A DNA stretch of 64,000 bases. Origin: a virus. The notes under the pieces are model-generated. The model was given only the letters and a program-made list of their open reading frames with translations. It was not told the origin of the DNA and made no database searches. Below are positions 18,423 to 20,074 of this stretch, piece after piece (position 1 is the stretch's first letter; every line of letters begins with the position of its first letter). The stretch covers positions 1,317 through 65,316 of the IMG/VR virus record IMGVR_UViG_3300029106_000003, one strand, 5' to 3'. The translations under genes were made by a program, and so were the position numbers.

Positions 18423-19583
18423 ATGGATTTCAAAGATACAATTCAACAGATTGTAGAGAAAATTGCTAAACAGAAGGATAGCATAGCAACGGAAGAAGCG
18501 ACAAAAAACTCTTTTGTAATGCCTGTGATAGCAGCATTGGGATATGATGTATTCAATCCCTTTGAGGTTGTACCGGAAATGGATTGTGACTTAGTTAAGA
18601 GGAAAGGCGAAAAAATAGACTATGCCATAATGAAGGACGAAAATCCTATACTACTTATAGAATGCAAGCATTGTAAACAAAACTTGAATTTACATGACAC
18701 TCAATTACAAAGATATTTTGTCGCTTCAAAGGCTAGGTTTGGGGTCTTGACGAATGGAATAGAATATCGCTTTTATACAGATTTAGAAAAGGTGAACATA
18801 ATGGACGAAAAGCCGTTCCTTGTGGTGAATATGCTCGATTTATCGGACAACGATATTGAGCAACTAAAAAAGTTTCATAAGTCTTATTATAATGAGCAAG
18901 ATATATTGAGCACGGCACAAGAGTTACAAATCACGATACAAGTAAAAGAAATGCTTAATCGTAATTTCCAAATGCCGGACGATGAATTTACACGTTATTT
19001 TGTCCGTAATCTTAATGATGGGAAATATACGGCAAAACTTGTGGATCAATATAGACCTATTGTTAAGAAATCCATTGCTTTGGTGATTAACGATATTATA
19101 TCCGACCGTTTAAATGTGGCTATGAAGAATGAGAATAAGGAGGAAAAACAGATACCACAGGAGGTTGAGAATGAAAATCAACAGCCGAACGAAATGAATG
19201 AAGAAAAACTTCCCGATGGTGTAGTATTTCAAGACCGAGAAAAAGGTATAGTTACTACACAAGAGGAGATAGATGCCTATAACATCGTGCGTAGTATATT
19301 GAGGCAGTATGTAGATGTATCTCGTATTCAATATAACGACTACAAGACTTATTTTTCCGTGAACATAGATGGTAGTACATGGTGGTGGATTTGCCGCATT
19401 TATATAGGGAAACGGAGTAAAAAAATATGCTTGCCAAAGGATAACTACAAGACGAATGAATGGATTGACATTGAGACTATCGATGATATTTTTAATTATG
19501 CCGATGGTCTTAAAGAGGGTCTTGATTTGGCATTGAAAGAGGCGAATTATTGGCTTGCAAAGAAAAATGAATTAGAAAAATGA
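18423..19583 (+). CDS. PD-(D/E)xK nuclease-fold protein (type I restriction HsdR N-terminal-like domain) with an extended C-terminus
   Basis: EKIDYAI...PILLIECKH core motif; opposite strand to the structural genes; TACTTTTG -7-like box at 18389-18396. Confidence 0.65.
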   Translation: MDFKDTIQQIVEKIAKQKDSIATEEATKNSFVMPVIAALGYDVFNPFEVVPEMDCDLVKRKGEKIDYAIMKDENPILLIECKHCKQNLNLHDTQLQRYFVASKARFGVLTNGIEYRFYTDLEKVNIMDEKPFLVVNMLDLSDNDIEQLKKFHKSYYNEQDILSTAQELQITIQVKEMLNRNFQMPDDEFTRYFVRNLNDGKYTAKLVDQYRPIVKKSIALVINDIISDRLNVAMKNENKEEKQIPQEVENENQQPNEMNEEKLPDGVVFQDREKGIVTTQEEIDAYNIVRSILRQYVDVSRIQYNDYKTYFSVNIDGSTWWWICRIYIGKRSKKICLPKDNYKTNEWIDIETIDDIFNYADGLKEGLDLALKEANYWLAKKNELEK

Positions 19584-19612
19584 CAAACGTAACTAATACA
19601 AATTTTAGAATT

Positions 19613-20074
19613 ATGAGAAAGTTTTTGCTAATCATAGTTTGTGCTTTATCCATTACATCTTGCTCAGATAATGATCCTGAGATATTATCAGTAATGATTA
19701 ATGTAAAATGTGATAATAAAATTGCATCTCCTTCTTTGGTTCGCTTATATGAATATGAAACAGCAAGAGACTTTGATGACAGCTATATGTCTACAATGGA
19801 GTACGGCGATTCTCAAGTTTTAAGAGATAAGTTGGGTAATGAGTTGACTCCCGCATATACATCTGACACGTTTTCTGGAATAAATATTTTTGAGGATATA
19901 AAAACAGGGGTATATTTGGCTGTAATACTTTATAAACCTGACGGCTTTACATGGCCTATGTTTTATTTTTATGGATATAAAGTAATTAATGTTGACGAGG
20001 ATAATAACGCACTTTTACATAATATATGTTTTTCTTATAGTGAATACGACCGAGGTAAATTCATTGAGTTTTAG
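19613..20074 (+). CDS. Lipoprotein, unknown function
   Basis: MRKFLLIIVCALSITSCSDN signal peptide and lipobox; ORF 19580-20074 overlaps the upstream stop. Confidence 0.6.
   Translation: MRKFLLIIVCALSITSCSDNDPEILSVMINVKCDNKIASPSLVRLYEYETARDFDDSYMSTMEYGDSQVLRDKLGNELTPAYTSDTFSGINIFEDIKTGVYLAVILYKPDGFTWPMFYFYGYKVINVDEDNNALLHNICFSYSEYDRGKFIEF

Follow-up and report, generated by a model that had tools for sequence, protein, structure and literature searches.

The window analysed here is a stretch of 64,000 nucleotides from the virus record IMGVR_UViG_3300029106_000003 (positions 1,317 to 65,316 of that record). The subject of this report is a pair of genes within it, designated ORF1 and ORF2 (ORF, open reading frame), which an original prediction made from the sequence described as a lysogenic-conversion or defence cassette. 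The window consists almost wholly of minus-strand phage genes, while ORF1 and ORF2 are located on the plus strand. They are wedged between the gene of the tape-measure protein and the gene at the position of the tail assembly chaperone, as had been claimed and as is confirmed by the ORF coordinates and the TMP_3 and phrog matches. The four genes of this region are as follows (aa, amino acids).

14201-18232, minus strand: tape-measure protein, 1343 aa (Pfam TMP_3, 1.5e-26; phrog_9959), one flank of the split junction.
18423-19583, plus strand: ORF1, 386 aa, a stand-alone PD-(D/E)xK endonuclease of HsdR-N / type IIG type with a C-terminal domain (phrog_4225, Pfam, alignment, model).
19580-20074, plus strand: ORF2, lipoprotein, 164 aa if started at the ATG of ATGA, likelier 153 aa from M12 at 19613; lipobox ITS/C28, followed by SDNDPE.
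20071-20883, minus strand: gene at the tail assembly chaperone position (phrog_11996), 229 aa on related contigs; its longest ORF in the window, which begins at GTG, has 270 aa.

On the minus strand the gene order is major capsid protein, four small genes of connector size, a 182-aa gene, the chaperone-position gene, the insert and the tape-measure gene. In the unannotated faecal phage MT835773 only 38 nucleotides (nt) separate a homolog of the chaperone-position gene (41% identity) from an ORF of tape-measure size (1775 aa) that comes after it. Since the two flanking genes are adjacent in this relative, the ORF1/ORF2 pair is an insertion, as is characteristic of morons. The GC content of the cassette is 31-35% in comparison to 39% for the window. 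ORF2 and the chaperone-position gene converge, and their stop codons overlap. The terminator of its own that a moron may carry was not found: a scan revealed no terminator-like site 3' of ORF2, but such scans, like those for sigma-70 promoters, are uninformative for Bacteroidales sequence.

Besides ORF1 and ORF2, only two plus-strand ORFs are supported by a protein family, namely a helix-turn-helix (HTH) gene (38429-38692) and a Fic gene (38696-39457). Three more plus-strand ORFs (112-126 aa, TTG starts) are found between 33.4 and 36.1 kb, none of which has a PHROG match; among the minus-strand ORFs tested across the same stretch two of four have one. Apart from these additional TTG-start ORFs, the layout with the two pairs as the sole plus-strand genes is upheld.

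ORF1 is a stand-alone nuclease with a separate C-terminal domain

Three segments can be distinguished in ORF1.

18423-18830, plus strand: nuclease domain, aa 1-136, with D66 (18618-18620), E80 (18660-18662), K82 (18666-18668), Q94 (18702-18704) and Y98 (18714-18716).
18840-19217, plus strand: helical linker, aa 140-238, followed by an acidic spacer, aa 239-265, which is variable in length in the alignment and predicted to be disordered (AlphaFold2).
19218-19580, plus strand: C-terminal alpha/beta domain, aa 266-386, without Pfam assignment; two short strands, a helix, five strands and a long helix.

ORF1 is matched end to end by phrog_4225 ("endonuclease", 1e-121), and aa 24-123 pass the Pfam cut-offs for HSDR_N (1.6e-13) and HSDR_N_2. 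The alignment across phyla yields the motif D66-x13-E80-x-K82-x11-Q94-x3-Y98. The HsdR-N core that had been proposed as D-x14-ECK is thereby retained, with the trivial correction that the spacing is D66-x13-E80-C-K82. All five residues are invariant in 108 of 108 homologs, which share 27-100% identity with ORF1 and at most 90% with one another, and the same is true for E24, E25, T27, K28, E52 and D56. The spacing of the catalytic residues is identical to that in HsdR of EcoR124I, where mutation of D151, E165 or K167 abolishes or severely reduces cleavage (PMC2602864) and where Q179 and Y183 constitute the QxxxY motif of the RecB family (PMC2475608). A failure of the catalytic residues to align in a structure-based comparison had been named beforehand as evidence against the original prediction; at the level of fold and motif, at which this was examined instead of by residue superposition, no such failure occurred.

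It is very likely that ORF1 is a nuclease of the HsdR-N type. Judged by its fold and its invariant catalytic residues, it would be an active, metal-dependent (Mg2+) DNA endonuclease. Searches of PDB sequences with the protein and with a profile returned nothing related to ORF1, and no NCBIfam model matched either protein of the pair past its cut-off.

The remainder of the protein, described previously as a long unassigned C-terminal half, can now be resolved into the helical linker and a distinct alpha/beta domain, which indeed is covered by no Pfam family. In the AlphaFold2 model the predicted local distance difference test score (pLDDT) falls below 50 at aa 238-263. The C-terminal domain modelled alone reaches a pLDDT of 94 and a predicted template modelling score of 0.86. 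The alignment used for the structure reached down to about 41% identity, and the search with the cross-phylum alignment yielded for the most part Bacteroidales sequences that had been found before. According to a comparison confined to PDB structures, the C-terminal domain is a frataxin/YjbR-like sandwich, which resembles the DNA-binding C-terminal domain of MotA as well as YjbR. A second PD-(D/E)xK nuclease in this half of ORF1 was also considered and is rejected on the basis of this fold.

Within the domain T279 is invariant and R325, Y310, D306 and E282 are nearly invariant in the 108 homologs, which points to a functional site. An exhaustive HMMER search with the domain alone revealed 871 representatives at expectation values (E) up to 0.001. 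Most of them share the architecture of ORF1; in some the domain is joined to HNH_2, to the C-terminal domain of SeqA or to TerD and HSDR_N (P0202), or DUF4268 is added. These partners suggest a nucleic-acid-related role, and we regard the domain as a probable nucleic-acid or target-recognition module.

The nuclease family is large and recurs behind phage repressors

Among the 8,000 candidates that were scored, at least 6,801 clusters (90% identity) fall below 1e-5. In temperate phages of at least five phyla the nuclease gene is located directly downstream of a repressor gene and in the same orientation. Examples of this arrangement and of closely related ones are listed below.

Fusobacterium phage FNU_1P: homolog between CI and the integrase, right after the repressor.
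Streptococcus pneumoniae phage IPP25: homolog right after the repressor.
Enterococcus phage EG-TP1: homolog after an ImmR/ImmA-like pair.
Corynebacterium phage Juicebox: homolog right after the repressor.
Klebsiella phage KpF5: homolog right after the repressor.
Escherichia coli Rac-like prophages: homolog following racR or a repressor of the HTH type.
Bacteroidales prophages with S24 repressors: homologs of 76% and 50% identity, behind the repressor.

A close co-directional upstream gene is present in 48 of 108 non-redundant loci; it carries a Peptidase_S24 domain in nine cases, HTH_3 in nine and Peptidase_M78 in three, with a possible overlap between the S24 and the HTH_3 sets. Two other positions are found as well. 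In the lineage of the window and in relatives with 62-70% identical nucleases the gene is located at the tape-measure junction with its own promoter box, and in Porphyromonas phages it adjoins HicAB, not far upstream of the gene of the tape-measure protein.

Proteins identical to ORF1 are encoded on contigs of up to 0.42 Mb, the 376-aa variant on contigs of more than 0.2 Mb and a 98% identical variant on one of 3.2 Mb, and therefore the phage is integrated in bacterial chromosomes. The family is present in 40 of 5,426 complete E. coli genomes. In one E. coli strain an IS3 insertion sequence (IS) separates racR from the homolog, and in two strains an IS1 is located inside the homolog.

Two of these prophages are noted for themselves. 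In the Rac-like prophage of E. coli S1-INA-02-B (L182, 4093-7155) the homolog follows racR. In a Bacteroidales prophage (L184, 7305-8978) the repressor-nuclease module is followed by two small genes and then by a gene for a 557-aa Mfa-like fimbrial protein, which is cell-surface cargo.

ORF2 is a lipoprotein in an exchangeable slot

The segment that contains ORF2 is delimited as follows.

19532-20068, plus strand: exchangeable segment, comprising the last ~17 codons of ORF1 and all of ORF2; identical blastn breakpoints against the sister contigs L031 and L028.

The lipoprotein signal that had been noticed in the second protein is borne out. ORF2 starts with a basic and hydrophobic N-terminus and a lipobox (MRKFLLIIVCALSITS followed by C), the Cys of which is invariant in eight of eight sequences. 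The ORF2 family is small, with seven homolog clusters of 41-99% identity and 39 invariant positions, which mark ORF2 as a genuine gene, and no significant Pfam match was found for it. All homologs but the closest (six of seven) start at the residue equivalent to M12 (19613). For this reason the link of stop and start by ATGA at 19580-19583, which is correctly read from the sequence, is doubtful as the true start of ORF2, and the overlap may be incidental.

The residues from the Cys onwards are CSDNDPE in ORF2 and CSKDDD, CSKDEDDD or CTDDNTD in homologs. For surface export of Bacteroidetes lipoproteins, the Bacteroides fragilis consensus SDDDD as well as K-(D/E)2 signals have been described (PMC5080379). 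The acidic stretches of ORF2 and its homologs resemble these signals, and ORF2 is predicted to reach the cell surface.

Homology to both sister phages ends at 19531 and resumes at 20069, so that 537 bp are replaced by unrelated segments of 833 bp or 902 bp (blastn). In the sister phages, which share the tail genes and whose nuclease is 97-98% identical, the ORF2 slot is occupied by an unrelated lipoprotein of 231 aa or 273 aa, the latter with a BDI_0842 domain. With 1,555 versus 1,257 index blocks, the 231-aa allele is no rarer than ORF2. Because phages with near-identical nucleases carry unrelated lipoproteins, ORF2 is not tied to ORF1. In the 181 loci that were fetched, ORF2 itself never occurs beside a nuclease of less than 94% identity to ORF1. 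Its distant homologs follow a TerB_N protein or a 211-aa protein, neither of which is related to ORF1.

The slot is variable beyond the sister phages. Close co-directional genes after the nuclease belong to 18 unrelated families in Bacteroidales phage loci, and at least 11 of these have a lipobox or a signal peptide according to their N-termini. When a strict lipobox rule is applied, six of 19 close downstream genes qualify, compared with 30 of 994 (3%) other genes in the same loci. In these sequences of Bacteroidales phages, then, the nuclease gene is the conserved element, and the slot behind it is hypervariable and taken mostly by exported proteins. We consider it very likely that ORF1 and ORF2 are independent of each other.

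The TerB_N protein was also considered as a relative of ORF1 and rejected (BLASTP E above 3). The corresponding ORF2 homolog, which is the most distant one (41%), overlaps the end of this 355-aa protein by 4 nt in the vicinity of transposase genes (L010, 1977-3523). The occurrence of Ter-family domains both near an ORF2 homolog (TerB_N) and with the C-terminal domain of the nuclease (TerD, in P0202) may be coincidence.

A second slot of cassette exchange is found elsewhere in the window at 25600-26800: instead of the RadC-like JAB gene (25920-26357) and its small neighbour, the otherwise identical sister contig L007 has a pair of HTH_3 and Gp49 (HigB-like) genes at 15540-16183.

The intergenic region contains two conserved promoter-like boxes

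Between the starts of the tape-measure gene and ORF1 the following elements were identified.

18233-18422, no strand: divergent intergenic region from the tape-measure start to the nuclease start, 190 bp, AT-rich (24% GC), aligned across 24 related regions.
18389-18396, plus strand: Bacteroides-type -7 box TACTTTTG, 26 nt before the ATG of ORF1; candidate cassette promoter (positional conservation).
18278-18285, minus strand: -7-like box TATATTTG, candidate separate promoter of the tape-measure gene, 43-44 nt upstream of its ATG (positional conservation).

The original prediction had assigned the cassette a -7-like box of its own at 18389-18396. This box is present, and its place ahead of the nuclease gene is conserved even though the intergenic regions have diverged; a canonical -33 TTTG is absent at TACTTTTG. 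Throughout the window TAnnTTTG occurs 72 times, where 69 occurrences are expected, which is chance frequency without enrichment, and therefore only the positional conservation of the box is informative. For this comparison 24 distinct intergenic regions with the same divergent arrangement of tape-measure and nuclease genes were used, the nucleases being 65-100% identical to ORF1. In most of them, in the group of 94-100% as well as in that of 65-70% nuclease identity, a TAnnTTTG box precedes the nuclease start by 32-37 nt, although this distance is unreliable at a small number of loci where the ORF caller had set the start inside the box. The sequence flanking the plus-strand box cannot be aligned between the two groups. 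The box on the tape-measure side is kept 43-44 nt upstream of the tape-measure start in all 24 regions. The two conserved boxes are comparative support which suggests a candidate pair of divergent promoters.

On the minus strand a hairpin is located between the tape-measure -7 box and the ATG (18257-18272; GAUGUG/CACAUC in the RNA; z = -2.4 for the 58-nt region). Its counterpart in the phages of the 65-70% group is CCGTG...CACGG with a similar loop, so that the stem is kept by compensatory changes, with only two sequence types represented. Possibly this hairpin is the 5'-terminal stem-loop of a separate tape-measure transcript.

Interpretation

We read the locus as a moron island with two slots, one of which holds a defence nuclease expressed in lysogens and the other an independent surface lipoprotein, and we assign this whole picture a probability of about 0.55. 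What had been proposed originally, a lysogenic-conversion or defence cassette in which both genes act together, is thus retained in part. The insertion, the conserved box and the repressor-adjacent homologs speak for a moron or defence locus, while the lipoprotein swaps speak against a system of two genes.

According to this reading the island would have been inserted in reverse between the chaperone-position and tape-measure genes of a temperate Bacteroidales siphophage of the Barnesiella type. The promoter near 18389, the activity of which is suggested by the conservation of the box, would drive ORF1 and ORF2 independently of the late operon. In the predicted product of ORF1 the nuclease core is tethered to the small alpha/beta domain by an extended helical arm together with an acidic, flexible spacer. 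The weakest step of the scheme concerns this domain, which might select the target, sense a trigger or hold the enzyme off self DNA until a trigger arrives. ORF1 would then act in lysogens as a single-protein nuclease that attacks incoming foreign (phage) DNA, in a restriction-like or possibly an abortive mode. ORF2 would not be a subunit of the nuclease but an independently selected modifier of the surface, which may serve receptor masking, superinfection exclusion or host fitness.

In lambdoid phages, genes beside the repressor are transcribed together with it in lysogens and typically exclude other phages. A role in defence and an expression in lysogens are proposed for ORF1 because its homologs sit behind an immunity repressor in five phyla, which is a circumstantial argument.

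Several points weigh against this reading. ORF1 in this phage does not adjoin a repressor, and many homologs are chromosomal genes of environmental Bacteroidota with varied neighbours. Toxicity is to be expected from a nuclease that lysogens make without regulation. No terminator separates the cassette from the chaperone gene, with which it collides head-on; this could mean that the cassette is silenced by late transcription or simply weakly expressed. Neither ORF1 nor ORF2 matches a model of PADLOC-DB v2.0.0 at E up to 0.1. The same scan of ten diverse ORF1 homologs gave one weak match to a type IIG enzyme and one to a type II methyltransferase and nothing else. No characterisation of the ORF1 family was found in the literature, including recent papers on the discovery of defence systems.

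A more far-reaching version is conceivable, although we would not go so far as to favour it. With ORF1 as its founding example, the family might be a large class of single-protein anti-phage nucleases which are expressed together with the repressor in at least five phyla and whose frataxin/YjbR-like domain, of a kind not described before, recognises the DNA of the invader or a phage trigger. Together with the lipoprotein-exchange locus of the Bacteroidales, intracellular and cell-surface barriers to superinfection would then be combined in one island.

Alternative explanations

The nuclease might instead serve the biology of the phage itself, in DNA processing during induction or excision, in the degradation of host DNA, in counter-defence or as an addiction toxin that stabilises the prophage. 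Such a function would fit with a gene that lies within lysogeny modules or next to them, repressor and integrase being its neighbours on either side, with the HicAB neighbour in the Porphyromonas phages and with the fact that PD-(D/E)xK recombination nucleases are common in phages. However, the gene is oriented with the repressor and away from the replication and recombination genes, and separate nucleases of the RecE/RecT type are encoded by the same phages. Within one phage lineage it shifts between the tape-measure junction and the repressor side, as accessory cargo does. The IS elements which disrupt the gene or part it from racR in E. coli prophages point in the same direction, since the disrupted gene must be dispensable. 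We therefore judge a function in the phage's own biology to be unlikely.

A special form of the defence model is that ORF1 is a modification-dependent restriction enzyme similar to type IV, with the C-terminal domain as reader of a modification in phage DNA. As in type IV enzymes, a nuclease is combined with a separate small domain, here a putative DNA reader, and no methylase is present. The same domain is fused elsewhere to HNH nucleases and to the C-terminal domain of SeqA, which binds hemimethylated GATC, and its fold resembles the C-terminal domain of MotA and YjbR, as described above. A tolerance of unmodified self DNA would be accounted for as well. Nevertheless we give this narrower version only a small chance of being correct.

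An obligate exclusion system of two components, translationally coupled via ATGA, in which a lipoprotein at the envelope would cooperate with the cytoplasmic nuclease, was suggested by the arrangement of the genes, which are adjacent and co-directional with a stop/start overlap of 4 nt, and by the exported proteins or lipoproteins which follow the nuclease far above chance in Bacteroidales phages. We regard it as very improbable. At least 18 unrelated families are represented among the downstream proteins, sister phages pair their 97-98% identical nucleases with different lipoproteins, and phages of other phyla carry the nuclease without such a partner. The sizes of the two families (seven clusters for ORF2, more than 6,800 for the nuclease) are likewise hard to reconcile with an obligate pair, as are the ORF2 homologs that follow the unrelated TerB_N or 211-aa proteins. 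Finally, the M12 start seen in six of seven ORF2 homologs removes the overlap.

That the cassette is a selfish, free-standing gene of the homing endonuclease type is extremely improbable. In favour of it are the encoded nuclease and the intergenic site, at which two conserved structural genes that adjoin each other in a relative are parted. Against it are the opposite orientation of the cassette and the conserved promoter box that it possesses. In unrelated phages the family mostly occupies a fixed position in the lysogeny module, among E. coli genomes no more than 40 of 5,426 contain it, no homing enzymes are known among HsdR-N nucleases, and the hot spot of exchange is the gene after the nuclease and not the nuclease.

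If ORF1 is indeed a defence protein, the reading preferred here, it would represent a very widespread and overlooked system, which has no PADLOC model and is misnamed in databases, and the HsdR nuclease module would be able to work without motor or methylase. The carriers of the nuclease include prophages of gut, oral and pathogenic bacteria (Bacteroidales, Porphyromonas, Fusobacterium, Streptococcus pneumoniae, Enterococcus, Klebsiella and E. coli). As the E. coli Rac-type homolog (WP_004184742) lies directly behind racR, the defence hypothesis can be tested on ordinary panels of phages. With its exchanged lipoproteins, the ORF2 slot offers a tangible example, readily open to experiment, of how prophages diversify the surface of Bacteroidales cells, a matter that bears on phage host range and on the competition of gut strains.

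Further features of the phage

The HTH/Fic pair on the plus strand (38429-39457) consists of an HTH_3 protein (87 aa) and, 4 nt further, a Fic/DOC protein (253 aa), a layout as in toxin-antitoxin or defence loci. On the minus strand (42254-44232 and 40993-41817) an AbiTii-domain protein (304 aa, 8.5e-33) is encoded directly downstream of an HTH protein with a Peptidase_M78 domain (ImmA/IrrE-like), and a Bro-N/KilAC antirepressor is found near these genes. Judged from its gene content, this region looks like another cargo module for defence or regulation. A C5 cytosine DNA methyltransferase (60805-61935, minus strand) may matter for self-protection against restriction.

Near the head genes, a 695-aa fusion of an amidoligase and a phage GNAT domain is encoded (29377-31464, minus strand); an amidoligase is also present in the Porphyromonas phages. 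The length of the tape-measure protein varies among otherwise near-identical phages (1332, 1343, 1348, 1350 and 1364 aa; L004-L009, L031 and L188-L192).

Comparison with known systems

With HsdR of type I restriction systems (e.g. EcoR124I) ORF1 shares the PD-(D/E)xK nuclease domain, motifs II and III and the QxxxY motif. In contrast to HsdR, the 386-aa protein lacks the superfamily 2 helicase/translocase (ResIII/DEAD, Helicase_C), and Pfam finds only HSDR_N families in it. It also lacks hsdM and hsdS as neighbours, the place of which is taken by tape-measure, lipoprotein and tail genes in this phage and by repressor and integrase genes elsewhere. The name "type I restriction endonuclease" that is used in databases is misleading for ORF1, because neither a motor nor a methylase nor hsdM/hsdS partners are present. 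The nuclease domain is also shared with type IIG/IIL enzymes such as BpuSI, DrdV and MmeI; these have a gamma-class methyltransferase and a fused specificity or target-recognition part, instead of which ORF1 has the helical arm and the alpha/beta domain.

The concept of Shedu (SduA) and of type IV enzymes is similar, since there as well a PD-(D/E)xK nuclease acts alone together with a separate gating or directing domain. However, the nuclease of ORF1 is HSDR_N and not DUF4263, no match to a Shedu or type IV model was found with Pfam and PADLOC, and its C-terminal domain is not a known reader of modifications.

As regards position, the defence genes that prophages express along with their repressor (lambda rexAB, Rac sieB and bstA) resemble most contexts of ORF1 homologs, in that the gene lies directly behind the repressor and in its orientation. 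The bstA gene adjoins the repressor, and Rac of E. coli K-12 carries sieB on that side of racR where Rac-like prophages hold the nuclease homolog. No relation in sequence or fold between these proteins and ORF1 was found, and ORF1 in this phage is located at the tape-measure junction. Its mechanism would be nucleolytic, whereas Rex depolarises the membrane and BstA is a KilA-N-based abortive infection protein. BstA of Salmonella phage BTP1 is likewise a single prophage protein (PMC8585504).

ORF2 may be compared with phage-encoded lipoproteins of superinfection exclusion, namely Llp of T5, Cor of phi80 and N15 and Ltp of the Streptococcus thermophilus phage TP-J34, which block the receptor or the DNA entry of incoming phages; it is a small accessory lipoprotein of a temperate phage and predicted to reach the surface. 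No homology of ORF2 to these proteins was detected, and its family, with seven clusters, is tiny.

The concept of morons was introduced for HK97 and HK022. ORF1 and ORF2 are similar to the morons of lambdoid phages as extra DNA between genes that adjoin each other in a relative, with a promoter-like element and a lower GC content. They differ in that no terminator was found, in that they converge on a late gene and in the combination of one fixed with one exchangeable gene. ORF1 is thus a prophage-borne nuclease moron and a candidate for defence, with an architecture undescribed so far, but nothing categorically new.

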